From: Lachnospiraceae bacterium
GTDB taxonomy: Bacteria; Bacillota; Clostridia; Lachnospirales; Lachnospiraceae
Length of the DNA: 64,000 nt
Assembly (NCBI GenBank): GCA_021202465.1
Contig: JAJQCZ010000033.1
Location: 18,616 to 82,615 of the forward strand
Direction of reading: 5' to 3'
Below are positions 4,975-36,632 of this stretch, one piece after another. Made by a program: the position numbers and the translations under genes. The notes beneath the pieces were generated by a model. That model did not search any database. It saw only the letters and a list, made by a program, of their open reading frames with translations, and had not been told where the DNA came from. The stretch's first letter is position 1, and each line of letters begins with the position of its first letter.

Positions 4975-5068
4975 TCCACATTTCAGAAAAAAAAGAATAA
5001 ACCGCACAGTGCGGACACGTTCCGACGGCTCCCGGACGGGAGCGCGGAAAGACAAGGAGATATTTACC

Positions 5069-18600: not shown

Positions 18601-21600
18601 TCGGTGTATACTGATAATTCTGAGCGGATTTTGTCGGTTCGGTTGCTTCGCCATAGACACCTTTCTGGAGAATCACACTGGCTTCCTCCGTCAGATCATG
18701 CGTGACCGTCGAAGTGAAATTGCGGACATACAAGGTATTCGCTAACGAAGACCCGCCAGCTTCCTCCACATATTTATCCCATGTGCCATCCTCATCATCC
18801 GCACTCGGGAAGGTCAGTGTCACGTAAATCTTCAACTGAGCTGAGCTGCTGAAGATAATCTCCATATCCTCCGGCCATTTGATCCAGCTTCCTTTCGAAC
18901 CGCTTCTTTCTTCTACGATTTCCCAGGAATCGAGAGCCGTCGTTGTCGTTCCAACTTCGGCTGTCTCCGTGCTGCTGATCGTAATTCCCTCACCAGCTTC
19001 ATAACTCAAAGTCACATTGGTGTCTTTCACCCACTCGAACACGTCATACGTCTCCGGCAAAAGATCCCACAAATCACTACCGCTTAATGTGAAAGTGCCT
19101 CCGCCATGACCGGACAAAATCAGACAATATGTTACTGTCTCACCAGCTGAGATCGTGCTGTAGTCATCATCATCATAATCGTCAGCTCCTTCTGCACCTG
19201 TGCTGTTATCGTATTCGTCCACCTTCGTCGCATTGGTTTCGTCCTCATCCACAACAAGATGCTTTTCGAAATCGATCAATGTGCCGCCGCCCCAGATGCC
19301 ATCATAAATGCGTGATCCGGTTCTGTCATTCATCCAGACTACATTGCCGATGGAATACTCGATCTCATCCTCTTCATATTGCACCAGGGTCTGATAACTC
19401 ACTTCGATGGTATAGTTACCGCCGCCAAGATGGTCGAAATACCATTTGATTTCCGTATGATATCCGGTATACTCAGTGCCGTCTTCCGATTCCGTCTCCT
19501 CAGCGGAATATTCTACGGTAATCGTGTCTGCCATCAGCAACGAATCGCCAGAGGTGCCAACCAGGACATTTTCATATGTTCCTACACCAAGGACATAATA
19601 CTTAGTCCCATCCTCAGCCTCATAAATCGTCACTGTTCCTGTCGAATTGGAATTCTCATCATAAAGCATATCAGTGATACTGGTGTTGCCACTGTTTTCA
19701 GTATACAGCACTAACAGCTGCTGACTCCCGTAAATATCATCTACCATAGGCAGATCGTCATATTCGCCGTTCCCCTCATGCCTGAAGGTCAGTAGATACT
19801 CCAGAACATCTCCATCCGCGGCGGACGGATCCGAGGTCAGCAATACACCGTCTTCATTATACACTGCCTTGCTGATATAAGCTTCCCGACTCAGTGTCGT
19901 TGATGCATTCGCAGTTTTTACATTCCCGGATTTACCTGTAGTTCTGACATAGGCATTATTTCTTGCCGTATAAGTTGCCGTCAGATCATATCGGTTCTGA
20001 CGATCATCATTCAGCAGCATCTGGAATGTATCTTTTGTTGTCGCAGGGATCTCGAAAGTCAGGCTTTCTCCTGCACTCAGTTCAAAACTGGAAGTCACTG
20101 TATTACCGTCTTCATCTGTGGTTGTCTCACCACCACCTAAGACCCATGTACAGGTGTAGGTAGCGGTATTTGTGACACCATATCCCAGCGTCTGCAGAAT
20201 ATCAGCGAGACTACTTCCTGATTCTGTGACAGCCTCACCTTCTGCATTCACATAGGATACAGTATAGCTTTGGCTCTCAGAATCATAGGTAATGGTCAGT
20301 GTAACCGTTATTTCCTCCTCAGAGGAAGTATTTCCGGCATTCAGATTGACCGTACCTTCTCCCGTGGTATCTGTAGCAGTGTCTGACACACCAAGGACGG
20401 CTTTCGCAATTTCTATAGTCAGCGGATAGCCTCTCTCTGCTGCCTCTTCAAACATTCCCTCCATATTTTCCGCGCTGATATATGTATACTGATTGAGTAC
20501 ATCCACCAACGTATACTTGCCTGTATCAGACGCAGTATATTTCAGGGCCTTTGTATTCGATACAACCAGCGTGTAGGTTACATCCTCCCCGAAATAGCCG
20601 CTTGTCTTATCGACCGATTTGCTGAGATCCAATGTACCTTCCTCAACCTTTATATCCTTTTCCACGGAAGCAGTGTCTTCCTGATCCTCACTGTAGGTAT
20701 ATTTGAAGGTTGCCGTCACACTATTGTCAATTTTTTTGTAAACGGTCGTCGTCGTTGTTGTTTCTTCGGTCGTGTCATCATCATTTTCTGTCGTGGTGGT
20801 TGTTGTTTCCTCCGTTGAAGCAAGTTTCGATACATCTGTGACGACTGTTGCCGCCGGAGCAATGCTCAGAGCTACCGTGGTAGCACTCAAAGAACTGCTA
20901 CTGGAAGAATTTTTCACCGTCCAATACAGGACCACATATCCTTCCATATCTTCACTGCCTTCGACATATTTCACATTCACACCGGACAGCGACACATCGG
21001 TACCGTCGGAAATAGCGATTGACGCAATCTGCACTTTTTCCCCGTTTGTATCATAGATATAAAGCGAACCGCTCTGATAGTACACTTCATTATCCTTGAT
21101 AGCCTGCAGAACCGTATCATCCCACGTCACACCTTCCGGCAACGTAAGAACATCCTCATAGTATGCGCTGGTGGCAAGGTCACGCCCATATGTAAACGTA
21201 TCGCCGGAGATGCTGGTCTCTATCTTATAAGTCAATGAAGAAGCAAAGCGAATTGTTCCATCCTCCGCATAGAGTGTCACAGAATCCTGCGTAGCATTCC
21301 CTTTCGTCACCTCATATGTATCCGGCGACGTCTCCCACCAGGCCTGAATTGTCTCCGCGCTATCAGTGGGCTGTGTATTTGTTCCAGCCGTTTTTGCCTC
21401 GTCTGCCGTCAGCACTTCGCCCCAGATCGTCAGCCCACCGCCATCGGAAGTTACATTCGGGTAGTAGGTCGTGAGCGTGAAGCTGGTGGTTTCCTCTGTT
21501 GACACTGTAAATTCCAGATAAACCGTATTAGGGTCATCTGTTGTATGCCATTCACCATTATATCCTTCTGCATTGTAATCCAACACAGAATCAATATCCG

Positions 21601-24600
21601 TATAGGACAGGTAGACGCGATATACGTGAGTGTCAGTCGCACTTGGCGCCGACGCGGCGATATTAATGGTTAACGTTTCACCAGTCAAAAGTGTGTATCC
21701 ACCCAAAGCATCTTCATCCTCAGACCAGGTGCCTCCACTGACATCAATAACCAGTTTTGCCGACTCATTATCATCAGCAGTCATTGTCAGACTGGTAGAT
21801 CCATCCATATCTTCCGCAGATGCTCCGGTACCGGACGCACCGCCCAATGCCGTGTTGTAGAAGGGCTCGTAGCCGATATTTTCAGTTGCTCCGGTAAAGA
21901 GAGTCAGCGCCCCTTCTACTGTTGTGACAGTCTGGTTTGTTTTTGCATCGGTCACACTGGCCAGCTTTGTAGCGTTTGCCATAGCATAATCGCCCAACTG
22001 AGTAATTTGAGAAGCGTCCTCAAATGTTAACGCCGTCAGGTTTATTGCGTCATGGAAAGCGTTCGATGCAACAGAAGTTACAGTATACTCGGTATTGTTT
22101 CCATCCTCTGTATCCACGATCGTGGCGTAGACAGTATAATCTGTCAGCTTTTGCGTTTCGCCGTTCTCATCCAGATACGTCGACGGGACATAGAGTAAAG
22201 AAGCGGTCTTTTCCTCTGTATTAATCTGATATATTGCTCCATATTCATCAATATAAATATATCCGGAAAGATTTTGCAGTACTGTTGAGGTGGCACTGTC
22301 AAATGCGCCTTCCGTCACGGTAATAAAATTCGGTCCCTGGAATGTAATGCTGCTTGCATACCGAACAATATAATCAAAATTTGCAATCAGAGTGTCGACA
22401 TCAGTTCCAATGATAAGATCATAAGTCGAAACAGATTTGAATACATAATTATACTGTGCACTCCCCGCAATGTTTGTGGCATTTTCCGCATCATAAATCA
22501 ATGTGTTCAAATTCAACATTGTCGAGTTAGTATTCAGACCATAGATGGATGTTGTTCCACTGGGTATGGTAAGCGTTTCCAAAGACGTACAGCTATTAAT
22601 ATAACTCTGTCGCAGGGAAAGCCCCTCTGTATCCGGCAATGTAAGCGAGGTTAACTTCGAGGAGTTTTCAAACATATTGTTGCCGCTCGCATTTGCCCCA
22701 TCCTCAAACACAACAGATTCCAGCGAAGAGGACTGGGCAAACTCATATTGTCCGAAATTGCTTCCTCCATAAGTCTGCACAGAACCTGGCACAATAATCT
22801 CTTTTGTTCCCGAAAGATATTCCAGAGCCCTCGAAGCAATATTGGTCGTACTGTCCAAAAGCCTGTAACTATCTGCCTCCCGTGCGGAAGGATAATCCGC
22901 CAGTGTAGTCAAGTCTGCTGTATACAAAACACCATCAACAATTGTATATGTCCCATTCGTCTGACAGCCGTCCTCTGTTGTAGTTACGCCCTCTCCATAA
23001 AACTCATAGGAGGAGGCATTCAAAAATGCACCGCCGCTTACATATGTCACGCTGCCGGGCAGAGATACGGTATAAGAGACTCCGCTCGTCTGATTGTAAA
23101 AGGCAAACATACCGACAGACTCTACGCCCTCTTCCAACGTAACCGAGGTCAGTGAGCTCGCATATTGAAATGCATACGCCTCAATAGTTTTGACATTTCC
23201 CGGAATTGTAACGGACGACAGTTTTCTCACATACACAAACGCATTTTGACTGATATATGTGACATCCGATCCTATATCCAGACTTGTTATAATATTATTA
23301 TTAAACGCATATTTTCCTATTCCGGTAATTCCATCTTCAATAACCAGCGCCACACCGTCTATTCCGCTATTATTATTAATATAGCTAAACCAGGGTGTAC
23401 TGGAGCCGCCTGAATAATCCGGAATAGCTCCGGATCCGGAGATCACCAGCGTTGTCAGGTTCCCATCGATGTCCTGATAAAGCGTCCAGGTAATGGCATC
23501 TGCATCACCGTCCGCATTCGCCATTGTACCGCTTGCATACACGGTTTCCGAAGAGGTCACTGCATAGATCGAAAAATGCTCTGCATCAAAGGCAATTGCA
23601 CCATCTTCCGCTTCAGAATCTACTTTCTCCGCATCGCCCTCGTCGGGGATATAATATACATCGTTGTTACCGCTGATCGCATCAGACTGGATGGTGACGG
23701 AAACAGTGCCATCCTCCGGTTCGTACTCTGTGCCATCGGCATAGTAAATGGAGATATCGAAAGCCATCACAATGTTAAGCTCGTCATTTTCCACCTCTAC
23801 AGGGGTGGCGGTGACGGTGGCTCCCTCCGGCAGCATACCGGAAACGGTGATGATAGCACTATCTGCTGTAACGGTCAGAGTCTGCTGCGTCAGGGTCACA
23901 CTCTCCTCCTGTGCAGCCTTGGTATCGTTATCAGTCTCCTTCGTTTCAGGCTTGCTATCCGCTTCTGTATCATTCTCAGCCTGAGTTTCAGAATCAACGG
24001 ATGCTTCCGCCTCGGCACTCTCTTCCTCCAGCTCCTGCGCCGCCGCCACGGTGCCATAGCCGACGATCTCGCTGTCGTTCAGATCATATTTGTTCTTGCA
24101 GACGGCGTCTGCATCATCCTCTTCATAGTCGCCCTCGATGACCGTCAGTTGTTCCTTCTTTTCATTGACAACGCTGACGATGCCGACACGGTCGATCTTT
24201 CCGTCTTCGTCGGTATCAAAGAAGACCAGGTCGCCGGCGACAGGAATATAATCCTCCGCGGCCTGATACAGGTCGATCTTCTTCAGGGAGACAGACCAGG
24301 CGTACGCGCCAGTGGCCTCCGGGAAGTCCTTCTTGGAAATGCCGGCATAGTGCAGGCAGAACGAGGCAAACATGGCATCCCAGTCGCCATACTCATTTCC
24401 AGCCCAGGCGCCGTAACGGGTATAACCCTTGCGGGTCTCCTCATCATCGTCCAGGGTGAAGTTGGCCGTGCTCTCGGTGTAGCCGATCTGGCTCTCCGCC
24501 ACGGCAACGACATCGTCCGCCCAGACGCCGGTCAGCTTCTCAGGCAGCGTCTTCTCCCAGTCGTCGGAAGTCTCCACGTCGGCCGTCTCATCGATCAGGC

Positions 24601-25117
24601 ACTCGACGGTATGGGTATGCTCCTCCAGACCGCAGGTCAGCTGCTCCTCATAGCATTCGTCTGTATGGGTGTGTCCCTCAGACTCCTCCAGGTCGCAGAC
24701 CAGGACCTTCTCGGTCTCATAGCAGGCATCCGTATGCGTATGACCCTCAGACTCCTCCTGGCCGCAGATCAGGTTGCCATCCGCGTCATAGCAGTCGTCG
24801 GTATGCGTATGGCCTTCAGATTCCTCCAGACCGCACACCAGGGCCTTCTGCTCTTCGTAGCAGGCGTCTGTATGTGTATGGCCCTCAGACTCTTCCTGGC
24901 CGCAAACCAGGACCTTCTCATAACAGTCCTCGGTGTGCGTATGCTCCTCCAGGCCGCAGTAGGTCTCGTTGGTCATGGCAATGCCGGTCGCGTGCAGCTG
25001 CCAGGCGACGCCCGCCGTCACCAGCAGCGCCAGCGCAGCCAGCATCGCCGCCATCCGCTGAGACCTGCGGTGCTCCGCCCGGAACTTCCGCACGTAGGAA
25101 TTCACTATATTCTTCAT
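15659..25117 (-). CDS. Giant (3152 aa) LPXTG-type cell-wall-anchored multidomain adhesin
   Basis: N-terminal signal/anchor helix, then Cys/His repeats, a CHAP-like domain and BspA-type leucine-rich repeats (residues ~540-1000, e.g. IGKYAFNNN, ISQNAFVY, IEAYAFQYASSLTSVTL). A long Thr/Ser/Asp-rich beta-type region follows. The C-terminus has a SpaA/CnaB-like domain (GAVFALYS...YYLVEVKAPDGYNL) and LPKSGGIG plus a TM helix plus RRRRSI. Confidence 0.9.
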   Translation of the reverse strand: MKNIVNSYVRKFRAEHRRSQRMAAMLAALALLVTAGVAWQLHATGIAMTNETYCGLEEHTHTEDCYEKVLVCGQEESEGHTHTDACYEEQKALVCGLEESEGHTHTDDCYDADGNLICGQEESEGHTHTDACYETEKVLVCDLEESEGHTHTDECYEEQLTCGLEEHTHTVECLIDETADVETSDDWEKTLPEKLTGVWADDVVAVAESQIGYTESTANFTLDDDEETRKGYTRYGAWAGNEYGDWDAMFASFCLHYAGISKKDFPEATGAYAWSVSLKKIDLYQAAEDYIPVAGDLVFFDTDEDGKIDRVGIVSVVNEKKEQLTVIEGDYEEDDADAVCKNKYDLNDSEIVGYGTVAAAQELEEESAEAEASVDSETQAENDTEADSKPETKETDNDTKAAQEESVTLTQQTLTVTADSAIITVSGMLPEGATVTATPVEVENDELNIVMAFDISIYYADGTEYEPEDGTVSVTIQSDAISGNNDVYYIPDEGDAEKVDSEAEDGAIAFDAEHFSIYAVTSSETVYASGTMANADGDADAITWTLYQDIDGNLTTLVISGSGAIPDYSGGSSTPWFSYINNNSGIDGVALVIEDGITGIGKYAFNNNIITSLDIGSDVTYISQNAFVYVRKLSSVTIPGNVKTIEAYAFQYASSLTSVTLEEGVESVGMFAFYNQTSGVSYTVSLPGSVTYVSGGAFLNASSYEFYGEGVTTTEDGCQTNGTYTIVDGVLYTADLTTLADYPSAREADSYRLLDSTTNIASRALEYLSGTKEIIVPGSVQTYGGSNFGQYEFAQSSSLESVVFEDGANASGNNMFENSSKLTSLTLPDTEGLSLRQSYINSCTSLETLTIPSGTTSIYGLNTNSTMLNLNTLIYDAENATNIAGSAQYNYVFKSVSTYDLIIGTDVDTLIANFDYIVRYASSITFQGPNFITVTEGAFDSATSTVLQNLSGYIYIDEYGAIYQINTEEKTASLLYVPSTYLDENGETQKLTDYTVYATIVDTEDGNNTEYTVTSVASNAFHDAINLTALTFEDASQITQLGDYAMANATKLASVTDAKTNQTVTTVEGALTLFTGATENIGYEPFYNTALGGASGTGASAEDMDGSTSLTMTADDNESAKLVIDVSGGTWSEDEDALGGYTLLTGETLTINIAASAPSATDTHVYRVYLSYTDIDSVLDYNAEGYNGEWHTTDDPNTVYLEFTVSTEETTSFTLTTYYPNVTSDGGGLTIWGEVLTADEAKTAGTNTQPTDSAETIQAWWETSPDTYEVTKGNATQDSVTLYAEDGTIRFASSLTYKIETSISGDTFTYGRDLATSAYYEDVLTLPEGVTWDDTVLQAIKDNEVYYQSGSLYIYDTNGEKVQIASIAISDGTDVSLSGVNVKYVEGSEDMEGYVVLYWTVKNSSSSSSLSATTVALSIAPAATVVTDVSKLASTEETTTTTTENDDDTTEETTTTTTVYKKIDNSVTATFKYTYSEDQEDTASVEKDIKVEEGTLDLSKSVDKTSGYFGEDVTYTLVVSNTKALKYTASDTGKYTLVDVLNQYTYISAENMEGMFEEAAERGYPLTIEIAKAVLGVSDTATDTTGEGTVNLNAGNTSSEEEITVTLTITYDSESQSYTVSYVNAEGEAVTESGSSLADILQTLGYGVTNTATYTCTWVLGGGETTTDEDGNTVTSSFELSAGESLTFEIPATTKDTFQMLLNDDRQNRYDLTATYTARNNAYVRTTGKSGNVKTANASTTLSREAYISKAVYNEDGVLLTSDPSAADGDVLEYLLTFRHEGNGEYDDLPMVDDIYGSQQLLVLYTENSGNTSITDMLYDENSNSTGTVTIYEAEDGTKYYVLGVGTYENVLVGTSGDSLLMADTITVEYSAEETESEDGTEYTGYHTEIKWYFDHLGGGNYTIEVSYQTLVQYEEDEIEYSIGNVVWMNDRTGSRIYDGIWGGGTLIDFEKHLVVDEDETNATKVDEYDNSTGAEGADDYDDDDYSTISAGETVTYCLILSGHGGGTFTLSGSDLWDLLPETYDVFEWVKDTNVTLSYEAGEGITISSTETAEVGTTTTALDSWEIVEERSGSKGSWIKWPEDMEIIFSSSAQLKIYVTLTFPSADDEDGTWDKYVEEAGGSSLANTLYVRNFTSTVTHDLTEEASVILQKGVYGEATEPTKSAQNYQYTPTDVNLNYFNNQDSYFRYVVYYVTVYNAGNTKLYLSELTDTLPDGYTYVQLVGSTSGLLNGQVYQSVSTKSAITVTGGSSENLLITGLPNDTSYKTATITKSGDGSEISFTVTGSSGSYALSYDEAVQMYYLEKGEALVFGYVCQVGSYSDTGDTATNTISMDYYDYLGMGVSQVAEEDSNYNLTGTDVVYNSETYYANTSNDGSRDVTEDGNTITLSSTVTQTLAEIVPGISKSFVGYKDSTGTIHTENVTSLYGYSSEVVYWSATLTNDGGRSITDYTVTDTMPYPYVFEGDVTMTVYSSSEAMSASDVTLFSIGTRTANDSSVTITSGNKSYTLTINGDSLSIKYGNYGGDSYMVISLSTDDDGNEILTVRFEGVYFAIPESGKIILNYSSRSPSGGTTYSTYVNNVKLDPDGAFDTKGEGILETDEEGDMDAVSANASITVSGAYATSSVKSVTELGSESSPTGNTASSDSSTNSIVLSAADSTFRYSLNVHNLTDIAMTKLVVIDNLPAEGDIYAVGTTERGSEFTVKLADTPNFTVYVTTEDENGNETETVLNSQYYEIQYSTTETEFTTDDYAGGNSSSRWLTWNSDVSADNVRAIRIIITDEGGTQIPAGATVTIEFDAEASSENGTSIEPSAIAWNNFGYHYALKDIDTELTAMPLVVGVQVPSAPSLTKKLVGLDGTAYEAESDTEFTFVIYEGKEMTDSNGSSYTTQSDLVDALKKLSGDDAREYRIVTLTVKEGESSGTLSLIGSNGLVTGDRWWTWEEDAPYTIAEFQSGDSYELKSWSASGGTSSDVANGNSYTFTYYRAKELRMTCTNTYEVWDLTLTKVDADSYDEDTETYTNTLKGAVFALYSKTKPESTVTSSNGAETTVVVDGVTWYLYSEKTTDSDGTINWTDLTEDSYYLVEVKAPDGYNLSYTSHKVTRTSNSETIIATNKAGYELPKSGGIGTWLYTIVSFILCGGAVLALYRRRRSI
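24599..24958 (-). repeat. Coding repeats: 7 copies of C-x-x-EE-(SEG)-HTHT-x-x-C(Y)
   Basis: Residues 54-173 read CGLEEHTHTEDCY / CGQEESEGHTHTDACY / CGLEESEGHTHTDDCY / CGQEESEGHTHTDACY / CDLEESEGHTHTDECY / CGLEEHTHTVECL. The repeat is also visible as ~72-nt DNA repeats. Confidence 0.85.
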
Positions 25118-25193: not shown

Positions 25194-25796
25194 TTATGTT
25201 TCATCCGTCCGGCTGCACCGGACAGTCACTCTCGTTCTTCCGCCGATGGTACAGGTAAACAGCGTCAGATCCCATTCACCGGTAATCATTTCCTCCACAT
25301 CGGTGGGCTGCAAGATGATCACCTCTGCCACCTGGTAGTGAAATACATTTCCGTTGACATCGGTGAAGGTCAGCGTGTCGCCCGTTTCCAGGTATTTCAG
25401 ATTCCCGAAATGCCGGGAGTAGTTGTGCCCGCAGATGACCAGGTCGTCTGTCCACACGGATCCGGTGTACCGCCCCGGCGCGATCCGCAGCCCCTCATAG
25501 CTCCACTCGGAGAGGATGGGCAGCTCCAGATCCAGCGAAGGGATGGTCAGCGTGCCGATGTAGGCGCGTCCGTCGATCTCCACGGTATCCATCACGCCGT
25601 CCTCCGGGCGATTGTAAATGGGGATGTCCACGCCTGTTGAGCGCTGCTCCGTATCCCACTGCAGCTCCTCCAGCGCCTCGTCTGCATTCTTCCCGGTCTG
25701 AGAGTCCTCCCAGCGGTTGTACAGGATCAGCGACAGAGCTCCCAGCAGCAGCACCAGCCCCAGTACCATGCAGAGGATACCGCCCTTACGCCGCAT
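25194..25796 (-). CDS. Short sortase-family transpeptidase (class uncertain)
   Basis: 200 aa with an N-terminal TM helix, the catalytic-type motifs ICGHN (His), LTLFTCT (TLxTC Cys) and RVTVRC (Arg). Its start overlaps the stop of the upstream pilin gene. Confidence 0.8.
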   Translation of the reverse strand: MRRKGGILCMVLGLVLLLGALSLILYNRWEDSQTGKNADEALEELQWDTEQRSTGVDIPIYNRPEDGVMDTVEIDGRAYIGTLTIPSLDLELPILSEWSYEGLRIAPGRYTGSVWTDDLVICGHNYSRHFGNLKYLETGDTLTFTDVNGNVFHYQVAEVIILQPTDVEEMITGEWDLTLFTCTIGGRTRVTVRCSRTDET

Positions 25797-26559
25797 GTCC
25801 CTTCTTCTTATCTGTCCGGACCAGCACCCAGCCCAGGGTAAACAGCACCAGGCCTCCCGCTGCCAGGATTGGGATCGGCCAGTTCAACTGTCCGGTCTGG
25901 GGGAGCGTGGTCGTCGTTCCGGTGGTCTTCGTTGTTTTCCCTGTCTTCGTGGTCGTAGCTGGCTCTTCCTCCGTCGCGGCCTCTGTTGTGGCCTCCTCGG
26001 TGGGTTCCTCGGGCGTTTCCGGAAGGACTGTCACCTCCACCTTCGGGGTCGCATCCACCGCATAGACCCAGGCTTCGCTCTCCTCACTGGGAAGCGTCAC
26101 CACAAAGGGAGAAAGGGTGGCGAAGCCGGTGGACTGGGTGGTCTGCACCACCAGATAAAGCCCCAACTCCAGCTCGTCAAAGAGGACCGTGCCGTCCTCC
26201 CCGATAGAAGCGGTGATCCCCTCGGCCTCCGTCGTCCCGATATACTCCGCCAGTGCGGATGCCAGGGACGTATCCTCCACATCCAGGTCGCCGGTATAGT
26301 CGGCAAAGACGTCTGTCGGCTCATAGGCCATACTGCCGTCATCCAGATACAGCGCCGCCACCTCGTAGAGGGTGACCGCTCCGTCGGTCATGACATTGCC
26401 GTCGTTATCCGCGAGCGTCAGGCTCACGGAACCGGTCTGCGTGAAGTCCAGTGACGCGCTGTCCGCGGCACAGACATTCTGACTCACGCCGCAGGCCAGG
26501 GTCAGCGCCAGCAGCAGGGCGCCGACCAGACGAGCTGTTCTTGTCATCGTCTTCATCAA
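25786..26559 (-). CDS. Small LPXTG pilin subunit (single CnaB/SpaA-like domain)
   Basis: Signal peptide, then LYLVVQT...SPFVVTLP...WVYAVDATPK (pilin-motif-like Lys), a Thr/Glu linker, and LPQTG plus a TM helix plus KKKGH. Confidence 0.8.
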   Translation of the reverse strand: MMKTMTRTARLVGALLLALTLACGVSQNVCAADSASLDFTQTGSVSLTLADNDGNVMTDGAVTLYEVAALYLDDGSMAYEPTDVFADYTGDLDVEDTSLASALAEYIGTTEAEGITASIGEDGTVLFDELELGLYLVVQTTQSTGFATLSPFVVTLPSEESEAWVYAVDATPKVEVTVLPETPEEPTEEATTEAATEEEPATTTKTGKTTKTTGTTTTLPQTGQLNWPIPILAAGGLVLFTLGWVLVRTDKKKGHAA

Positions 26560-27473
26560 GATTCCTCCTTTTTTCTCTTCCGGCGTGATCCCGCCAGCAC
26601 TCCGATCAGAAGGAGCAGCAGTAAGGGCACCGCCACGATCGTTGCAACCAGTATTGTATCCACCTGATATGCCTCCGCGGTCACGCGGATCAAAGCATCG
26701 TCGGCATTTTCTATACGCACCCCGCGTACCAGCAGCCGATGGCTGTTGATGCCGTAGGGAGTACAGGTCATCAATGTACAGTAATCTTTTCCTTCTTCTA
26801 TATAAAGGTTCTCGATCTCATCCGGCTCTACGATGGAGATCTGATCGATTTCATAGGTAAGAACCTGATTCAGCACGGTGATCGTGAAAGTATCTCCGAC
26901 CTCCAGCTGATCCAGATCCGTAAACAGCAGCGCACTGGGCAATCCCCGGTGTGCGGAGATTACGCAGTGTGTGCTTTCTCCTCCGACAGGAAGACTGGTT
27001 CCCTCCAGATGTCCGGCTCCGTTCTGAAGGACCGACGTATCGGTCCCGTGGTAAATGGGCAGCTCCACGTCGATCTTGTCAATCGTGACATAGCCCATGA
27101 TTCCGGTTCCGGTGATATTCAACAGGTCCCAGTAATCCTCATCAACCAGATCCGGGACGGAAATCGTCTTGTCAGACCCCAGCTCCGCCAGCCGTTCATT
27201 GTATGCCTCCGCCGCTTCAAAATAGGAGGAATAGTCTTCTTCCGTCATCTCGGAAACGGCTTCCTCGTAGGTGGCGATCGCCTTCGTCTGTGCCCGGGAA
27301 TTCCACCAGTTGCTGACAGAGGGATACAGCATCACGGCCAGACCGATAAAAAACACAATCACCAGAAGGATGGTTCCCCGCCTGTCATTTCTTCTCCGGT
27401 TTCGTTTTCTTCGTTGTCTTCGTGTTCGTTTAACTTCGTTATCTTCTCGGCTCGTCTGGCGTTTCATGTCCAT
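26556..27473 (-). CDS. Class C (pilus-assembly) sortase
   Basis: ELPIYHGT, VISAHRG and TLMTCTPYGINSHRLLVRG motifs, with N- and C-terminal TM helices as in class C sortases. Confidence 0.9.
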   Translation of the reverse strand: MDMKRQTSREDNEVKRTRRQRRKRNRRRNDRRGTILLVIVFFIGLAVMLYPSVSNWWNSRAQTKAIATYEEAVSEMTEEDYSSYFEAAEAYNERLAELGSDKTISVPDLVDEDYWDLLNITGTGIMGYVTIDKIDVELPIYHGTDTSVLQNGAGHLEGTSLPVGGESTHCVISAHRGLPSALLFTDLDQLEVGDTFTITVLNQVLTYEIDQISIVEPDEIENLYIEEGKDYCTLMTCTPYGINSHRLLVRGVRIENADDALIRVTAEAYQVDTILVATIVAVPLLLLLLIGVLAGSRRKRKKEES

Positions 27474-27644: not shown

Positions 27645-30524
27645 TCAGTTCCGGCTCATTCTCCGGCGGGTGATCAGCAGAACCGCCGCGCCGAGAACCA
27701 GAATGCCGCCGACCAGGTAGAAGAGCGTAGTGCCCATACCACCGGTGCCGGGAAGGGTCGAACCGGCTGCGTTGGCGACGAGGACAGAAATCACAGGAAC
27801 TTCAAACTCCGTTACGGTCGTGATTTCAGATTCTTCACCATCGCTTTCGGTGCTCACCAGCTTATAAAGCCCCTCAGCATATGTATCCGGCTTGACTGTT
27901 TCTTCGAACGTTCCATCTTCGAGCTTTGTATACACAGTACCGTCGTATCCATCTAACTCTTCCTCAGTAATAGCTGCGAAATACCGGGTAGTCGTGATAG
28001 TGGACGTGCTGTACGTCACAGAACTCGAATCCATCTTGGCTTCCAGGGTTTTAGGATCCGTCAGCAGGACATAGCCATCGGGAGCCTTAACCTCAGTGAG
28101 GGTATAGGTTCCGATATCCACACCCTTGATGATAATCTGACCATTGGAGTTGCTGACAAAGGTTGACGTTGCGCCTTCAGTATTGGAATCGGACGTGTAA
28201 TTATAATACTGAACCGCTCCGTTACCATCGGTCACCGGCACCGCATAAATCGCGTTTTCGTCGGCATCCACAAGCGTGAACTCCGCACCCTCCAGAGCCT
28301 CACCAGTCTCCTCGCTGGTCTTGTAAACGCCAAGTGCGTAGGTGTAGGTCACGGTAGTACGCTCTTCGGTTTCATGGTTCAGATCACTGCCGCTGGGATA
28401 TGTCGGATTTTCCGGATCAGGATCATAGGGCTTTTCATGGCCCACCACAGAGTAATCGTAAATCGCACTGTTCACGTTACCATCACCTGCGATAACTGCA
28501 TCCTCGTTAATAATGGCATCATAAGTCAGATGAATCTCACAGTTCGGGTAGAGACCGTTACCATCTTCATCCGCCCAGATAATGGTGGCTTCGATCAGGG
28601 TGTAGTCCTTTTCACCGTCCTCACCATATACCTCACAAGTAAACAAAGTACCAATCACATTTTCTTCATCATCCTTAATTGTATAAGTGACTGAGTTTGT
28701 ACTCTTTGAAGGATTGTCTTTCGCAACATTATATTCCACATCATTGATGGTTAATTTAAAGCTATTGCCATCCAGATCAAAGCCTGGATCCATCTTATCG
28801 TAGATGTAGTAATATTTAACCTGATCGGTATAAGTGTTCTCATCATTCTCAACATGACCTTCATCTGCCACATTATTCACAGCGTCAATGCTGACATCAA
28901 AGGTCACGGTGTCGCCAAAAGCACCAGTAGAGACGGTGCTCTCGGTACCATCCTTGTTGAGAATAACCTTACCGAAGTCCTCATCCTCAGGCTCATCTGG
29001 CTCGTCTTCTGTAGGGTTCTTTACAACATTGGTCTTATAATAATTCTCACCGTCAAAGCTGTAATCAGCGGTATTCACAATGGTGCTGTCCGTGATAGAC
29101 AGAGCCGCCTCCGTGACTTTCACCTGGAAGTAGACGGTCACAGTAGCACCGACCGCCAGGTCATCAACGACCCATTTAATATTGCCATCCGTATCCACGG
29201 CGATCGTGGTCTGATCACTGAGGGTACTGCTGGCACTGCCAGCTACATAGACGGTTCCGGCAGGCGGAGCGTCAACGATGGTCAGGTCAACCGCTTCATC
29301 TGCGGTGTTTGTGTACTCGATGGTGTAAGTCAAAGTATTACCTACATCCACCTTGTTGCCATCGATGGAGCCCTGTGTATTTTCATCTGTAGGATCATAG
29401 GTTGCATCCTTGACATCCTTGACAGGTGACTCGGGATTGTCTACGGGGTTTTCCACAACATTGGTCTTGAGGTTGTACTCATGACCAACAAGGGTCACGA
29501 CAAGGTCCGCGTCGTTAACAACCGTTCTGTTTTCAATCTTCAGTGCAGCTTCTGTGACCATCACCTGGAATTCGACCACCAGGGTGGCACCATCCTCGAG
29601 ACCTGTCACTGTCCAGGTCAGAGTGCCATCAGTGGCTGTGTTCGTAGTCCCCTCACAAACAACCAGAGACCCGTCTACCAGCTGATAGATTGCCATGCTA
29701 CCTTCCACAAACTCCGTTCCTTCCGGAGCAGCATCCGTCACAACCACTTTATCCAATGTCACACCGGAATCATTCGTGTAACTGATCTGGTAAGTCAGGA
29801 TATCGCCTACGCTCACTGTTTCTTTGTTAATATCTCTGTAAGTGGTGGTTCCATCGTCCTCGTCTACCGTCTTTTCCAGAACAGCCTTGACCGGATCATC
29901 GGGCACCGGCTCTTCGGGATCATTATCCCAGCTGGGCTCTTTAGTGTTCTTATCCGTAATGGTAGCCGTGGGGTTGGTCGTAGACAGAGAAACCACCGAT
30001 CCCAGAGAGCTGGTCACGAAATAGTATCCTAGGGGCAGATTACTGAATTTCACGGTGGAAGCCTTTGCCACGTCACTAGCAACCTCTATCGCGCCGGGGA
30101 AATAACATACGATTACATCCTCACTCTGCGCAACAATAAACGATTTGACAAATGCAATGACTTCTTCATCCGAATAGGTCGTGCCATCAGCCTTGGTTCC
30201 GATCGTCACCTGATAATCGCCGTTCGAAAGCGCTGTAAAAACAAACACATTGCCACTGGCCGCCTCCAGCACCTTCTTCTGTGCTGCAGTCGCGGTGTAG
30301 GCTGTTGCAGTCACGGTATTACCGTCTTCATCCACAGACTCACTGTAAGTTGCGTCAAACAGCTTGTAGACGTGATACGTTTCATCGATGGTCGCGTTGG
30401 TGATCGTAATAGATCCCGTCGCGCTCGCATCGGAGTCTGTCTCGTCTGCAAAAGCCGTCACAGTCATGCTGAGCGTCATGACCAGCGCCAGCAATATACA
30501 GGCAGCTCGTTTCAGTTTCTTCAT
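27645..30524 (-). CDS. Large LPXTG pilin / fimbrial adhesin (isopeptide-domain type) with two DUF11-like repeats
   Basis: Signal peptide MKKLKRAACILLALVMTLSMTVTAFA. GSITITNATIDETYHVYKLFDATY is typical of the N-terminal domain of SpaH/RrgB-type pilins. There are two ~115-aa repeats (V(S/D)VG(D/N)xLTYxIxYTN...). The protein ends with LPGTGGMG, a TM helix and RRRMSRN. Confidence 0.88.
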   Translation of the reverse strand: MKKLKRAACILLALVMTLSMTVTAFADETDSDASATGSITITNATIDETYHVYKLFDATYSESVDEDGNTVTATAYTATAAQKKVLEAASGNVFVFTALSNGDYQVTIGTKADGTTYSDEEVIAFVKSFIVAQSEDVIVCYFPGAIEVASDVAKASTVKFSNLPLGYYFVTSSLGSVVSLSTTNPTATITDKNTKEPSWDNDPEEPVPDDPVKAVLEKTVDEDDGTTTYRDINKETVSVGDILTYQISYTNDSGVTLDKVVVTDAAPEGTEFVEGSMAIYQLVDGSLVVCEGTTNTATDGTLTWTVTGLEDGATLVVEFQVMVTEAALKIENRTVVNDADLVVTLVGHEYNLKTNVVENPVDNPESPVKDVKDATYDPTDENTQGSIDGNKVDVGNTLTYTIEYTNTADEAVDLTIVDAPPAGTVYVAGSASSTLSDQTTIAVDTDGNIKWVVDDLAVGATVTVYFQVKVTEAALSITDSTIVNTADYSFDGENYYKTNVVKNPTEDEPDEPEDEDFGKVILNKDGTESTVSTGAFGDTVTFDVSIDAVNNVADEGHVENDENTYTDQVKYYYIYDKMDPGFDLDGNSFKLTINDVEYNVAKDNPSKSTNSVTYTIKDDEENVIGTLFTCEVYGEDGEKDYTLIEATIIWADEDGNGLYPNCEIHLTYDAIINEDAVIAGDGNVNSAIYDYSVVGHEKPYDPDPENPTYPSGSDLNHETEERTTVTYTYALGVYKTSEETGEALEGAEFTLVDADENAIYAVPVTDGNGAVQYYNYTSDSNTEGATSTFVSNSNGQIIIKGVDIGTYTLTEVKAPDGYVLLTDPKTLEAKMDSSSVTYSTSTITTTRYFAAITEEELDGYDGTVYTKLEDGTFEETVKPDTYAEGLYKLVSTESDGEESEITTVTEFEVPVISVLVANAAGSTLPGTGGMGTTLFYLVGGILVLGAAVLLITRRRMSRN

Positions 30525-30780: not shown

Positions 30781-31341
30781 TCAGATCCGCAGGATGACCC
30801 TGCCCACGATCTGGTCCTTCTCGATGCAGCCGATAACGCTGCTTCGGGAGTCGATCGAGGTCGATCGGTTATCTCCCATCACGAAATAACGATTCTCTGG
30901 CACCTGATAGGGATAGGTAATGTCTGTCTCGCCAAGCGACTGTTCGGTTACATACGGCTCGTCGAGAACTTCGCCGTTGACGAAGACCACTCCGTCGTCG
31001 TCTATATCGATCACATCGCCCGGTCCGCCGATGACCCGCTTCAACAGCAATTTGTTCTGATAGTAAAAGCCCACCAGGTCGCCGGTCTCGAAGTCGCCGG
31101 TCTTCACCAGGACGATGATGTCGTTGTCCGAGAGCGTCGGCTCCATACTGGTGCCGGATACCTGCAGCACCGGCAGGAACAGCGTCGCCAGCAGAACGGC
31201 GGCGGCCGCCACAACGATCAGCGCGTAGATCGTACTGCGCAGCGTCTGGCGGTATCGTTTCTGATATTGTAATCGTTCCCGTTCGGCGGTTACTTCCTCC
31301 TCAGAGGGGACATTTGCCATTTGCGGAATTCTGGGTTCCAT
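30781..31341 (-). CDS. Type I signal peptidase (S26 family), pilus-locus associated
   Basis: TM anchor, then SGTSMEPTL (Ser), LLKRVIG (Lys) and GDNRSTSIDSR boxes. Confidence 0.88.
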   Translation of the reverse strand: MEPRIPQMANVPSEEEVTAERERLQYQKRYRQTLRSTIYALIVVAAAAVLLATLFLPVLQVSGTSMEPTLSDNDIIVLVKTGDFETGDLVGFYYQNKLLLKRVIGGPGDVIDIDDDGVVFVNGEVLDEPYVTEQSLGETDITYPYQVPENRYFVMGDNRSTSIDSRSSVIGCIEKDQIVGRVILRI

Positions 31342-31404: not shown

Positions 31405-32139
31405 CTATGTGTCAGATTTTTCAAACATGCGGTTTGCCAGCTCCGGATTCTCTTTAAGAATTTTCTTTGCCTCCCGAACGAAGGCCGCCCGCATCCGCTT
31501 CACGTCCTGTGTTGTCTTCTCCCGCTGCGCCGTGCATTCCGTCTCAGTCTGTTCCCGCAGCGCCGTACATTCCGTCTCGGTCTGTTCCCGCAGCGCTGTA
31601 CATTCCGTCTCGGTCTGCTCTCGCAGCGCGACACATTCTGTCTCCGTTTGCTCCCGCAACGCGGCACATTCTGTTTCCGTCTGTTCCCGCAGAGAGCGGC
31701 ACTCCTCTTCGACCCGCCGCGTCTGTTCCGCAGCTGTCTCCTTCTCGGACTGCACCGATGCGAGCAGCTCTGCCGCCGCGTCCTTTTCCGCCTGCGCCGA
31801 TGCAAGCAGCTCCGCCGCCTGCGCTCCGGCTTCTGCCAGCCTCTGCTCTGCCTCGCTGTCTCTCTGCTTCACAGAGTCCAGATATTGCCGGGCCGCCGCC
31901 TCGGCATCCTCAAAGATATGATTCAACCCAACAGCCGCCTCTGCGATCGAACCGGCTTCCTCTATCCGCAGGAGTTTGTCATCCAGCTGACGCTGCAGCT
32001 CTTCATTTTCTGCGCGAAGCGTCTTTTCATTCTGCTGCAGAGCATAAATAATCTCGATCAGCTCCGTGCGGTTCATCCTTCGCAGGTCTTTTTCTGCTCC
32101 TCTTGCCATGCTTCTCTCACTCACTCCAACCCACGGCAC
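31405..32139 (-). CDS. Coiled-coil protein with five LREQTETECxA decapeptide repeats (start uncertain: 32139, 32109 or 32076)
   Basis: Ala/Glu/Gln-rich heptad-like sequence with no signal peptide. It overlaps or abuts the stop of the upstream gene. Function is unknown. Confidence 0.6.
   Translation of the reverse strand: MPWVGVSERSMARGAEKDLRRMNRTELIEIIYALQQNEKTLRAENEELQRQLDDKLLRIEEAGSIAEAAVGLNHIFEDAEAAARQYLDSVKQRDSEAEQRLAEAGAQAAELLASAQAEKDAAAELLASVQSEKETAAEQTRRVEEECRSLREQTETECAALREQTETECVALREQTETECTALREQTETECTALREQTETECTAQREKTTQDVKRMRAAFVREAKKILKENPELANRMFEKSDT
31525..31692 (-). repeat. 30-nt in-frame tandem repeat, about 5.5 copies
   Basis: GCATTCCGTCTC(A/G)GTCTGTTCCCGCAGCGC(C/T)GTA-type units, read directly. 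They encode LREQTETEC(A/V/T)A. Confidence 0.85.
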
Positions 32140-32929
32140 GCTGTTCCCGCTCGGCCAGCCGGTCGCTGGCCTGATCCACCAGAACGCTGATGTTCTCCCA
32201 GATACTCTCCGTCGTCGTCTGATGCAGATGCTGCAGACAGCGCGGCGAACATTTCTCCGGTGCCACGCGGGCTTCTCCGGCCAGACCGCGAATCTCGCGG
32301 CTCAGGTTGCTCCGGTCGAGCTCACCGCCGCCCCGCGTACGGAAAATCATTCCGCTGCCGATGCCCTGCCGTTCGGCATAGTTCAGCAGCTCGCCGCGCA
32401 GGGGTGCCGGAATATGTACCGACGCAGACCCCAGGAGTAATCTTCCTTCCCGGACAGCTTCCACCGTCACCTGCGAGAGCTGGGCGATCATCACACCGGT
32501 CCCCGCGAAGAGCTTGACCAGCAGATACGCTCTCTCCCGGTTCAGGCGGCGCGCCGCTCCCAGCAGACGCAGGTATTCGCTGCGTGTCAGCTCCGGCCGC
32601 ACCTCCGGCTCTCCCTTCAGGGACTGGCTCACCTGGAATTCCCGGTGACCGTAATAATCCAAAAAGCCGTTGACCGCCGCGGTGAAGGAATTGACCGTGC
32701 TGGCGGAATAACCCTTCGCCAGCAGCTTCATCCGCATCTCTTCCAGTGTTCCCCGCCGGATCCGTCGGTCCTCCGGCAGGATCTGAACCATCTGCGACAG
32801 CTTGCTCCGGTACATTCTGAGGGTTTCCTGTGACCGGCCCTGCTCCCGCAGTACATCCAGATAGCGGGCCAGCATCGGCTCGCTGACCACCAGACTCGCC
32901 TCCGGAATCTTCTCTCTGGTCTCTTCCAT
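32117..32929 (-). CDS. Tyrosine-recombinase-like protein lacking all catalytic residues (pseudo-recombinase)
   Basis: Paralogue of ORF 33370..34206 (shared YLRLL/YKRLL, VTVEAV, IFRTRxGxxxDRSN). However TGIRISEL has become TGVMIAQL, HNLRHLF has become PRCLQHL, and the GHSRIETTRIY region is unrelated, with no Tyr. Confidence 0.75.
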   Translation of the reverse strand: MEETREKIPEASLVVSEPMLARYLDVLREQGRSQETLRMYRSKLSQMVQILPEDRRIRRGTLEEMRMKLLAKGYSASTVNSFTAAVNGFLDYYGHREFQVSQSLKGEPEVRPELTRSEYLRLLGAARRLNRERAYLLVKLFAGTGVMIAQLSQVTVEAVREGRLLLGSASVHIPAPLRGELLNYAERQGIGSGMIFRTRGGGELDRSNLSREIRGLAGEARVAPEKCSPRCLQHLHQTTTESIWENISVLVDQASDRLAEREQRAVGWSE

Positions 32930-32967: not shown

Positions 32968-32993
32968 AAACCGCAGACTATTCATTCTGCGGT
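32968..32993. repeat. Left inverted repeat / candidate recombinase core site
   Basis: AAACCGCAGACTATTCATTCTGCGGT. Arms ACCGCAGA and TCTGCGGT flank the 8-nt spacer CTATTCAT. Confidence 0.85.
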
Positions 32994-33181
32994 TCGACCC
33001 GAACTGCATTCACACAGTAAAGAAAATAGCGCCGATCACAACGTCTCCCGACAGAGCAGCAAGTGAATCGGCGTACAAAAAACAGACCTGCGGTGTTTAT
33101 CGTCCTCCTCAGGCTATTTTTGTGTGTCAATCAGAGAAGAATATGCTTCATAAGGCCCGGAATCTGTCACCTTTTGTCGCC

Positions 33182-33220
33182 AAAAAGGTTCAAAAAATGT
33201 TCAAAAAAGCTTCAAAAAAA
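33182..33220 (+). promoter_or_regulatory. Four phased A-tracts (UP-element-like / curved DNA) upstream of the -35
   Basis: CAAAAAGG TTCAAAAAATG TTCAAAAAAGC TTCAAAAAAAGG. The A-tracts start at about 33182, 33192, 33203 and 33214. Confidence 0.6.
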
Positions 33221-33232
33221 GGGGAAATTTCC

Positions 33233-33261
33233 TTGTAATTCCGATGTATGTAGGCTATAAT
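33233..33261 (+). promoter_or_regulatory. Sigma-A-type promoter TTGTAA-17-TATAAT
   Basis: -35 at 33233-33238, 17-nt spacer, -10 at 33256-33261. Read directly. Confidence 0.65.
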
Positions 33262-33305
33262 AGGCAATGTATGGCACGCAATAAGAATTATGTTGTGCAC
33301 AGCTT

Positions 33306-33331
33306 ACCGCAGAATGAATAGTCTGCGGTTT
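33306..33331. repeat. Right inverted repeat / candidate recombinase core site
   Basis: ACCGCAGAATGAATAGTCTGCGGTTT is the exact reverse complement of 32968-32993. The spacer ATGAATAG is inverted relative to the left site. Confidence 0.85.
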
Positions 33332-33340
33332 TTCTTTTTC
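33307..33340 (+). terminator. Plus-strand terminator formed by the right repeat hairpin plus an external T-tract
   Basis: CCGCAGA-atgaatag-TCTGCGG followed by TTTTTCTTTTT. The T-tract lies outside the repeat. Confidence 0.5.
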
Positions 33341-33369
33341 CCGCCCGCCGGGTCACGCCCCCCGCCGTT

Positions 33370-34206
33370 TCACAGGACCAGCCTCATCTGCTCCAGGACG
33401 CGCTCATGGGAGGCGGCGCTGACGGCGACATAGATGCGCGTGGTCTCGATGCGGCTATGGCCCAGGACGTCCGCCAGGTGCGCGAGATTCCTCTCGACCG
33501 CGTAGAAGCAGCGGGCAAAAAGATGACGCAGATTGTGGGGGAATACCTTGTTTCGATCAACGCCCGCCGCCTCGCAGAGCCGTTTCATCTGATGACAGAT
33601 GTTGCTCCGGTCCATGGGGCGCCCGCTGCGGGTGCGGAAGATCACTCCGCCGTCGATGTCCCGGCCCCCGGCATAGTCCCGGAGGCGGCGGCGCAGATCT
33701 TTGGGAAGCAGGACGGTGCGGCTCTTTCCCTTCATGTGAATCTCCGCGCGCCCGGCTGCCACCGCCTCCACGGTGATGTATGGCAGCTCGCTGATGCGGA
33801 TGCCGGTGCTGCCCAGCGTCATCATCAGGAGACACAGCCGCTCATCTCCCTGCCTGCGCGCCGCCTCGAGAAGCCTCTTATACTCGGCTTCCGTCAGTTC
33901 CCGCTTCTCCTCGACGAAGGCGGCCCGCTGCACCTTCACGAAATGCACCCGCAGTCCCTCCAGGTCCCGGAACCGGAGGTAGGCGTTGACGGCGGACAGA
34001 ACACCGTTGACCGTCTGCGCCTTCCGCTGCTCCATGAGAGCATCCCGCCAGGCCAGGAGCCTCGGCTTCGTCAGCGGCTCCCCGCCCAGCCAGTCCGCCA
34101 GCCTCCGCAACGCCATGCCGTATTTCCGGATTGTAGCGCGCGCCTTCTCATTCAGTGCCAGTGCCTCCTCGAATTCCCGGATACGTTCCTCTGTAATGTA
34201 TTCCAT
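33370..34206 (-). CDS. Tyrosine site-specific recombinase (XerC/D-like, intact active site)
   Basis: TGIRISEL (Arg), HMKGKSR (Lys), HNLRHLFA (His-x-x-Arg) and LGHSRIETTRIY (His, Tyr) are all present. Confidence 0.88.
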   Translation of the reverse strand: MEYITEERIREFEEALALNEKARATIRKYGMALRRLADWLGGEPLTKPRLLAWRDALMEQRKAQTVNGVLSAVNAYLRFRDLEGLRVHFVKVQRAAFVEEKRELTEAEYKRLLEAARRQGDERLCLLMMTLGSTGIRISELPYITVEAVAAGRAEIHMKGKSRTVLLPKDLRRRLRDYAGGRDIDGGVIFRTRSGRPMDRSNICHQMKRLCEAAGVDRNKVFPHNLRHLFARCFYAVERNLAHLADVLGHSRIETTRIYVAVSAASHERVLEQMRLVL

Positions 34207-36100: not shown

Positions 36101-36370
36101 ATGGCGCTGGCGACTTTAACCGCAAGAGTAGACGAGAATGACAAAGCAAATTTTGATGCCTTTTGCTCCCATGTTGGATTAAATACTTCTACCGCAATCA
36201 ATCTCTATGTGAAGGCTGTACTGCGCGAGAATCGCATCCCCTTTGAGATCACCCCGGCCTCGGATCCTTTTTTCTCCGAGAATAATATGGCTTATGTTAA
36301 GAAATCCGTCCGGGAATTAAAAACCGGAAGAGGCACCGTACATGAATTGATTGAGGATACAGATGAGTGA
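36101..36370 (+). CDS. dinJ: RelB/DinJ-family type II antitoxin
   Basis: MALATLTARVDENDKANFDAFCSHVGLNTSTAINLYVKAVLRENRIPFEI is a DinJ/RelB ribbon-helix-helix N-terminus. It overlaps the toxin gene. Confidence 0.85.
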   Translation: MALATLTARVDENDKANFDAFCSHVGLNTSTAINLYVKAVLRENRIPFEITPASDPFFSENNMAYVKKSVRELKTGRGTVHELIEDTDE

Positions 36371-36632
36371 AAAGATATGGTCAGATGACGCATGGGACGA
36401 TTATCTCTACTGGCAGATGCAGGACAAGAAAACACTCAAACGTATCAATCAGCTGATTAAAGATATTGAACGAAATGGCTGTGATCAGGGCATCGGAAAA
36501 CCTGAACCTCTGACTGGCGATTTGCGCGGCGAATACAGTCGCCGCATCAACGAAAAGGATCGGCTTGTTTATCATGTGGAAAATGGTCGCATCTACATTG
36601 CCCACTGCCGCGGTCACTATGATGATAAATAG
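36363..36632 (+). CDS. yoeB: YoeB/Txe-family type II toxin (mRNA interferase)
   Basis: MSEKIWSDDAWDDYLYWQMQDKKTLKRINQLIKDIERN...GKPEPL...YSRRINEKDRLVY...I..CRGHY, a canonical YoeB sequence. The internal ATG at 36363 overlaps the dinJ stop by 8 nt. Confidence 0.9.
   Translation: MSEKIWSDDAWDDYLYWQMQDKKTLKRINQLIKDIERNGCDQGIGKPEPLTGDLRGEYSRRINEKDRLVYHVENGRIYIAHCRGHYDDK

Follow-up and report, generated by a model that had tools for sequence, protein, structure and literature searches.

A catalytically dead tyrosine-recombinase paralogue encoded with invertible-promoter surface loci of gut Clostridia

Main

Invertible promoters are a major route to surface variation in gut bacteria, and only in a few model species is it understood how cells with several switches set the rate, direction and mutual exclusivity of inversion. 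Here we analysed a 64,000-nucleotide (nt) stretch of DNA from a Lachnospiraceae bacterium (GenBank assembly GCA_021202465.1, contig JAJQCZ010000033.1, positions 18,616 to 82,615 of the forward strand; hereafter the window, numbered from its first letter), in which an invertible promoter lies between the gene of an intact tyrosine recombinase and a sortase-pilus operon whose first gene encodes a recombinase paralogue devoid of catalytic residues. The anatomy of the locus and the family-level evidence for this dead recombinase are strong. If our reading of its function holds, a conserved pseudo-recombinase in these loci would represent a new type of control component.

In the fim switch of Escherichia coli, the tyrosine recombinases FimB and FimE act on fimS, an invertible promoter segment of about 300 base pairs (bp) that serves pilus genes; the repeats of fimS are 9 bp long and the switch depends on IHF and Lrp, and FimE is a catalytically active, direction-biased recombinase encoded upstream of fimS. 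The window has the same layout, in that inverted repeats flank a promoter segment of about this length for pilus genes beside the gene of an active tyrosine recombinase, which reads towards the switch. The initial annotation had likened the dead paralogue to fimE. This likeness stands in one respect, as the orientation of the segment is predicted to govern whether a protein of the recombinase family is expressed, and falls in others, as FimE is active and encoded upstream, whereas the protein in the window lacks all catalytic residues and is encoded downstream, in the operon. Unlike the fimS repeats, the arms here each make up a complete palindromic core site, 24–26 nt long.

The capsule loci of Bacteroides fragilis also have invertible promoters, with upxY and upxZ as the first genes behind them; inversion is carried out by the global serine recombinase Mpi, UpxY resembles NusG, and UpxZ has no relationship to recombinases. 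In the bacteria studied here, as in Bacteroides, several phase-variable surface loci can occupy one genome, and the first gene behind the promoter, in the window the dead paralogue, would be regulatory rather than structural; unlike here, no recombinase-derived protein is involved in Bacteroides. By analogy, the parallel suggests that the loci might be coordinated with one another. In Clostridioides difficile, the RecV switches, such as that of cwpV, invert short regulatory segments upstream of surface-protein genes by tyrosine recombination, one distant recombinase serves many switches, and the cwpV switch acts through a terminator and not a promoter; we know of no dead paralogue in this system. 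The window shares with RecV switches a clostridial host, a tyrosine recombinase and surface genes, and differs from them in its adjacent recombinase gene and its promoter.

Passages of PMC11892184 describe an ‘inverton group 139 / invertase group 35’, in which 32 of 33 invertons are from Clostridia, Clostridium sp. D5 and Intestinimonas butyriciproducens among them; in the two examples shown in print, arms of 14 and 26 nt enclose about 205–228 nt, nearly every inverton adjoins a tyrosine recombinase, and flipping was seen in sequencing reads. Compared by taxonomy and dimensions only, this group is probably the same switch family, and the passages of that paper on group 139 make no mention of a catalytically dead paralogue. 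An inactivated protein beside an active relative has been described in Tn6022-like Tn7 transposons, where TnsF, a tyrosine-recombinase derivative that lost its catalytic pocket, was co-opted as a DNA-binding or DNA-bending factor (PMC10293859). Unlike the protein in the window, TnsF has zinc fingers and tandem core-binding (CB) domains, selects comM targets and has no link to phase variation (PMC10293859), and we saw no homology between it and the dead family beyond the superfamily. Domain and neighbourhood scans found neither zinc fingers nor Tn7-like transposition neighbours with the dead paralogue. A search of the literature, in a library that is incomplete, returned no description of a dead recombinase paralogue in phase-variable loci, and the family is apparently undescribed.

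The window switch is an invertible promoter in the OFF orientation

The switch and the genes on its two sides consist of the following features.

33370 to 34206, minus strand: intact tyrosine recombinase of 278 amino acids (aa), reading towards the switch; PF00589 (E 7.6e-26) and PF02899 in Pfam
33332 to 33341, plus strand: T-run, outside the invertible segment and 3′ of the hairpin of the recombinase-proximal arm
33306 to 33331: recombinase-proximal arm, with the core site ACCGCAGA-ATGAATAG-TCTGCGGT (+TT)
32994 to 33305: invertible segment of 312 nt, at present in the OFF orientation
33233 to 33261, plus strand: sigma-70-type promoter TTGTAA-17-TATAAT, with 10 of 12 consensus matches, directed at the recombinase gene, with the operon behind it
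33182 to 33219, plus strand: 3.5 copies of an 11-nt A-tract repeat, phased, just upstream of the -35 hexamer
32968 to 32993: operon-proximal arm, with the core site in inverted orientation
32117 to 32929, minus strand: catalytically dead tyrosine-recombinase paralogue of 270 aa, starting at ATG behind a GGGAG-type ribosome-binding site

The two arms form a perfect 26-nt inverted repeat (32968–32993 and 33306–33331) with 312 nt between them. The full 26-nt core site is ACCGCAGAATGAATAGTCTGCGGT, and in each arm two 8-bp palindromic half-sites (ACCGCAGA and TCTGCGGT) can be read around an asymmetric 8-nt spacer, which is the classical core-site layout of tyrosine recombinases. The stop codon of the intact recombinase lies 38 nt from the nearest arm. 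On the other side, the dead paralogue is the first open reading frame (ORF) behind the switch, as the initial annotation had placed it: a leader of 38 nt separates the arm end at 32968 from the start codon at 32929. From these features, and from related modules that occur in both orientations, we take the switch to be a genuine invertible promoter that is now OFF. Given the present direction of the promoter, the dead gene should be transcribed only after inversion, and the phased A-tracts could act as an UP-element-like feature.

A terminator scan matched 33306–33329 plus TTTTTCTTTTT, and RNA folding gave an 8-bp hairpin followed by UUUUUCUUUUU. Together with the T-run, the recombinase-proximal arm looks terminator-like for transcripts from the OFF promoter and, if it works as such, would keep them from reading through the recombinase gene in antisense. 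The arms of related loci are rich in AT, and by eye the combination of arm hairpin and T-run does not look conserved there. Within the segment, a search for a terminator that would block OFF-state read-through from the recombinase gene gave only a weak candidate, whose fold was no better than those of shuffled sequences. An additional half-site with one mismatch at 33087–33094 was considered as an accessory site and rejected as being at chance level, since the window has a match of this quality, with one mismatch, roughly every 670 nt.

The exact locus was found in the OFF state only, in the window and in an independent assembly (L081) that is identical to it. The ON junction (…GCACAGCTT, ACCGCAGAATGAATAGTCTGCGGT and TTACCGG in succession) and the site itself had no match in JGI metagenomes, from which the organism is absent, so that this result is uninformative. 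One contig of a further independent assembly (L082; Logan SRR15221336) opens, at its position 1, precisely on the operon-proximal 26-nt arm; such a break fits an assembler that met both orientations in that sample, and is only suggestive.

The paralogue is folded and has lost every catalytic residue

The dead paralogue aligns with the intact recombinase at 38% identity over 185 aa (BLASTP, E 7e-30), and dead and active proteins are collinear over their full length in a MAFFT alignment of 41 locus pairs, which bears out the initial annotation, where the two had been taken to align along their length. In Pfam, only the N-terminal SAM-like domain PF02899 is detected (E 3.6e-8, above the cut-off) and PF00589 is not; profiles match the CB domain to XerA, XerD and lambda Int.

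Catalytic positions were read by alignment with the intact recombinase, in which the set is complete (R137, K159/K161, H224, R227, H250 and Y259), and with E. coli XerD. The Arg-I motif TGIRISEL has become TGVMIAQL, the hairpin Lys is gone with a small deletion (HMKGKSRTVLLP to LLLGS--ASVHIP), the HxxR motif HNLRH has become RCLQH, and the His/Tyr region GHSRIETTRIY has become SDRLAEREQRA, which has no Tyr and after which the protein ends 7 residues on. At the six catalytic positions the paralogue thus has M, a deletion, R, Q, D and A in place of R, K, H, R, H and Y, and its last 85 residues contain no tyrosine. An independent profile alignment against an XerD chain in the PDB gave the same register at Arg-I and HxxR. 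The substitution of every catalytic position, which had been proposed from the sequence, is therefore upheld in full.

The AlphaFold2 (AF2) model of the paralogue has the two-domain recombinase fold, with a mean predicted local distance difference test (pLDDT) score of 93.1. All 29 Foldseek matches in the PDB at E ≤ 0.001 are tyrosine recombinases (XerA, E 1.3e-9), and the best TM-scores, 0.62–0.65, are to DNA-bound lambda Int. The models differ at the C terminus: the last 38 residues of the dead protein form a single helix and then stop, just past the position equivalent to the Tyr and without the C-terminal helix of the active enzyme, whereas in the AF2 model of the intact recombinase (pLDDT 84.6) this region is divided into separate helices, with a Tyr loop and a closing helix. 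In these models, the missing nucleophile and tail are possible features of a poison subunit. Pfam, NCBIfam and Foldseek gave recombinase matches only and no NusG/KOW-like fold.

The dead paralogue belongs to a large family under selection

Among 5.8 billion proteins searched, about 88 clusters had 39–58% identity to the dead paralogue, nearly all without catalytic residues and clearly apart from active relatives, which stand at 31–39% identity. A profile search of 1.84 billion representatives extended the family to at least 816 clusters (50% identity) at E ≤ 1e-30. The catalytic signature R..HxxR..Y is present in none of the 139 best full-length members, and the family has motifs of its own, ELTR.EYLRLL, YLLVK, NPRCLRRL and a C-terminal E.EQ..GW. 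The second His position has become a conserved Arg across the family (in NPRCLRRL), and the Arg-II position is usually kept as R, K or H, so that the Gln in the window is a minority state. The dead CB domain retains the Xer-type motifs YRR.L and GY..T.N and is conserved at 0.42, against 0.47 in active proteins. Distance matrices of dead and active proteins correlate (r = 0.41).

A genome scan with a 16-sequence alignment, one genome per species, gave 109 loci, of which 80 were kept, and the dead ORF is intact in these 80. The ratio of non-synonymous to synonymous substitution rates (dN/dS) is about 0.06–0.09 in five close pairs, the lowest five of nine, and equal for the dead gene and its active partner, which points to purifying selection of like strength on both; in the other four pairs it is 0.3–0.46 for both genes. 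The loss of all catalytic residues, and public annotation merely as ‘site-specific integrase’ or ‘hypothetical protein’, could be taken as signs of a decaying pseudogene, or of a protein without a DNA-related role. Against this stand the intact ORFs, the family's own conserved motifs and its size, the low dN/dS values and the confident predicted fold. Because of dN/dS, family size and fold, decay is ruled out for the dead gene, and we give such an explanation hardly any weight. The protein is instead a catalytically dead, folded and selected paralogue kept for a new job.

Neither Pfam nor NCBIfam has a dedicated model for the family, and NCBIfam gives only Xer models below their cut-offs. One consequence of the ‘site-specific integrase’ label is that surveys of recombinases near invertons will count inactive ones. 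In plasmid and phage collections we found no member of the dead family, the only match being an active-type recombinase at 33% identity in a Monoglobus plasmid record.

Long forms of the dead protein occur in eight loci (L024, L030, L031, L032, L035, L041, L066 and L076), where an extra dead catalytic domain is fused ahead of a full dead unit; the proteins (P0002–P0010 and P0024) form one clade. Behind the long form comes a distinct 187-aa ORF consisting of a dead catalytic domain alone, and the ORF in L041 comprises three units. Catalytic residues are missing from all tandem and stand-alone units, while the E.EQ..GWE end is preserved in the stand-alone ORFs and in C-terminal units. Such arrays, too, are possible features of a poison subunit.

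Related loci share the switch architecture and occur in both orientations

The 80 loci are mostly from Oscillospiraceae, Lachnospiraceae and other gut Clostridia, and three cultured strains are among the carriers, Anaerotruncus sp. G3(2012) (L017), Agathobaculum ammoniilyticum (L057) and Oscillibacter valericigenes An890 (L049). By a hand tally from contig names, at least 14 genomes hold 2–4 loci or modules. In at least 41 of the 80 loci, an active recombinase gene, about 300–370 nt and the dead gene follow one another on one strand, and about seven further loci with long-form dead genes have the same order. Across the 41 loci, the arms lie 5–20 nt past the recombinase stop codon and 30–80 nt ahead of the dead-gene start, with about 210–280 nt between them in most. 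The arm consensus is GACA(A/G)A-ATnnnnAT-T(C/T)TGTC; arms are clearly better than shuffled controls in 24 of the 41 loci, and the weaker ones carry the same motif. Among modules of one genome the half-sites are alike and the central spacers differ.

Related modules occur in both orientations. Two loci from one metagenome-assembled genome (MAG), L062 and L071, have flanks that align directly (94% and 85%), whereas their 276-nt inner segments are 88% identical only if one is inverted, with breakpoints at the arms. A promoter lies, as in the window, 65–100 nt from one segment end in 29 of the 41 modules, facing the recombinase gene (OFF) in 22 and the dead gene (ON) in 7; its orientation is ambiguous in the remaining 12.

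This excess of OFF assemblies would fit a factor made in the ON state that drives the return to OFF, and the dead and active genes are co-inherited as a pair. Both points speak for the dead protein as a partner that the active recombinase requires or that gives it direction, either in a hetero-complex like that of XerC and XerD or as a directionality factor, for example from ON to OFF. The two half-sites of each core site are, however, palindromic, as expected for a single protein species; by the established mechanism of tyrosine recombinases, a subunit without a nucleophile permits one strand-exchange pair only; and a partner required for the step from OFF to ON could not be produced from an OFF locus. 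In addition, L085 and L088 have near-identical core sites and active recombinases and no dead gene. Because the same kind of switch exists without it, the dead protein would be a modulator and not an essential subunit, and we regard an obligate or directional partnership as quite improbable.

The L088 switch (4842–5161) contains the core site ACCACATAATGGGCATTATGTGGT three times, twice next to the operon and once next to the recombinase gene, which would allow alternative inversions; downstream lies a capsule locus with Wzz, tyrosine-kinase and Bac_transf genes. In L037 (9619–9885), the arms are unusually long (61–67 nt, perfect) around only 133–145 nt, and this repeat, which reaches far beyond the core site, may include accessory sites.

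The dead protein as a possible modulator of inversion

We propose the following model for the window. The intact upstream recombinase would flip the 312-nt segment; in the OFF orientation the promoter would fire into the terminator-like arm, and after inversion it would drive the genes of the dead paralogue, the coiled-coil protein, the S26 signal-peptidase-like protein, the SpaA/LPXTG protein, the sortases, the pilin-like protein and the LRR/SpaA adhesin. The dead protein would thereby read out that this locus is ON, and could feed back on recombination by occupying the conserved GACA(A/G)A-type half-sites or, alternatively, by joining active protomers in complexes that are unable to complete strand exchange, having itself no nucleophile and no C-terminal tail to donate. 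Further inversion would as a result be slowed or biased at its own switch and also, given that half-sites are common to the modules and spacers are not, at paralogous switches of the same genome. Expression in the ON state only, binding to DNA or to the recombinase and any effect on inversion are what we infer. A role in which the dead protein, coupled to the ON state, modulates tyrosine-recombinase switches, its own and possibly those of paralogous loci, is the reading we tentatively favour, while putting its chances at somewhat below even.

A number of observations weigh against this model. The mean net charge is +5.7 in dead proteins and +22.6 in active ones, and this loss of about 17 net positive charges suggests a weaker affinity for DNA; the dead family also evolves faster than the active one, though the half-site is conserved. 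Read-through from the upstream recombinase gene could express the dead gene in both orientations. The position of the gene first behind the promoter, as in the window and most loci, is not universal: in the closest relatives of the window protein (57–58% identity) the dead gene closes a sortase-pilus operon, in L052 and L014 other genes stand between the switch and the dead gene, and over such loci its place in the operon is second, third or last. Finally, in L026, L027, L042 and L019 the upstream gene encodes a serine recombinase of about 200 aa, and in L026 a 31-nt repeat unrelated to the tyrosine-recombinase core site flanks a 113-nt promoter segment. Since the family is also found behind serine-recombinase switches, a purely cis mechanism at the arms of the switch itself cannot be general, and the idea in the initial annotation, of a protein that locks or biases its switch at these arms, would have to be broadened.

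The serine-recombinase switch is itself invertible, and both of its states have been captured in nature: between two MAGs (L026:629–1500 and L027:116–1000) the flanks are 98–99% identical, and the inner segment matches at 112 of 113 positions only when reverse-complemented. Downstream of it lie the dead gene and a glycan operon. Loci of the serine type, and those with the dead gene at the operon end, would fit a modulator only if it acts in trans.

The same cases favour a different role, in which the dead protein would regulate transcription of surface loci, as an activator of its own operon or a repressor of others, with UpxY and UpxZ of Bacteroides capsule loci and the pilus-operon activator RlrA as functional counterparts. 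Adjacency to tyrosine-recombinase arms is not the invariant; what recurs is that the dead gene is co-oriented, and presumably co-expressed, with a surface operon under an invertible promoter, be it behind serine-invertase switches, at the end of pilus operons or after other genes. The cargo is always made up of cell-surface genes, namely glycan loci (glycosyltransferase, LicD, glycerophosphotransferase and ABC-2 exporter), genes of giant proteins or adhesins (SLH, VWA or SpaA proteins of 1300–3300 aa) or sortase-pilus loci, several modules can be present in one genome, and the CB domain is conserved, all of which would suit a transcription regulator. On the other hand, the leader of about 35–40 nt from arm to start codon is too short to hold an operator, no conserved motif of that kind emerged, Foldseek showed no known RNA-polymerase-interacting module in the fold, and stand-alone dead catalytic domains without a CB domain are hard to explain in this way. 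Weighing both sides, we hold a transcription regulator to be unlikely, though the strongest alternative to modulation of inversion.

Returning to modulation of inversion, a bolder version would make the dead family a dedicated ON-state signal that acts in trans, on half-sites or on active recombinases, and so freezes or orders several switches. This broader version seems doubtful to us. If true, it would amount to a recombinase-derived latch by which one locus is ON and the others are held, a pseudo-enzyme counterpart of UpxZ and FimE control at the level of DNA inversion.

The pilus operon and neighbouring features

Behind the dead gene, the window operon continues on the same strand with the following genes.

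31405 to 32139, minus strand: coiled-coil protein of 244 aa, overlapping the stop of the dead gene by 23 nt
30781 to 31341, minus strand: S26 signal-peptidase-like protein (PF10502, E 5e-35)
27645 to 30524, minus strand: SpaA-domain LPXTG surface protein, a pilin or adhesin, of 959 aa (PF17802, PF01345 and PF00746)
26556 to 27473, minus strand: sortase (PF04203, E 7.7e-25)
25786 to 26559, minus strand: LPXTG pilin-like protein of 257 aa (NCBIfam NF033902 and NF053819, both below cut-off)
25194 to 25796, minus strand: second sortase (PF04203, E 4e-16)
15659 to 25117, minus strand: giant BspA-LRR/SpaA-domain adhesin of 3152 aa (PF13306 and PF17802), the last large same-strand gene of the cluster

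Homologues of the coiled-coil protein were found only in pilus-type loci (L001, L025 and L060). Its gene contains 5.2 in-frame copies of a 33-nt repeat at 31520–31692, which encode an ALREQTETEC-like protein repeat, and a second repeat of 42 nt at 31739–31819; these could form a length-variable region. At the distal end of the pilus cluster, a PD-(D/E)XK transposase-family gene (14510–15346, minus strand) separates the gene of the giant adhesin from another gene for a SpaA-domain protein (13143–14414, minus strand).

In L045 (280–897), a protein of about 205 aa with no Pfam match is encoded directly upstream of the dead gene, and L021 (905–1378) contains fragments of a homologue; it might be another kind of invertase or a regulator. 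On the plus strand of the window at 36101–36632, two small overlapping ORFs (89 aa and 93 aa) resemble, by eye, an antitoxin and toxin of a type II system, of the RelB/DinJ and YoeB/Txe type.

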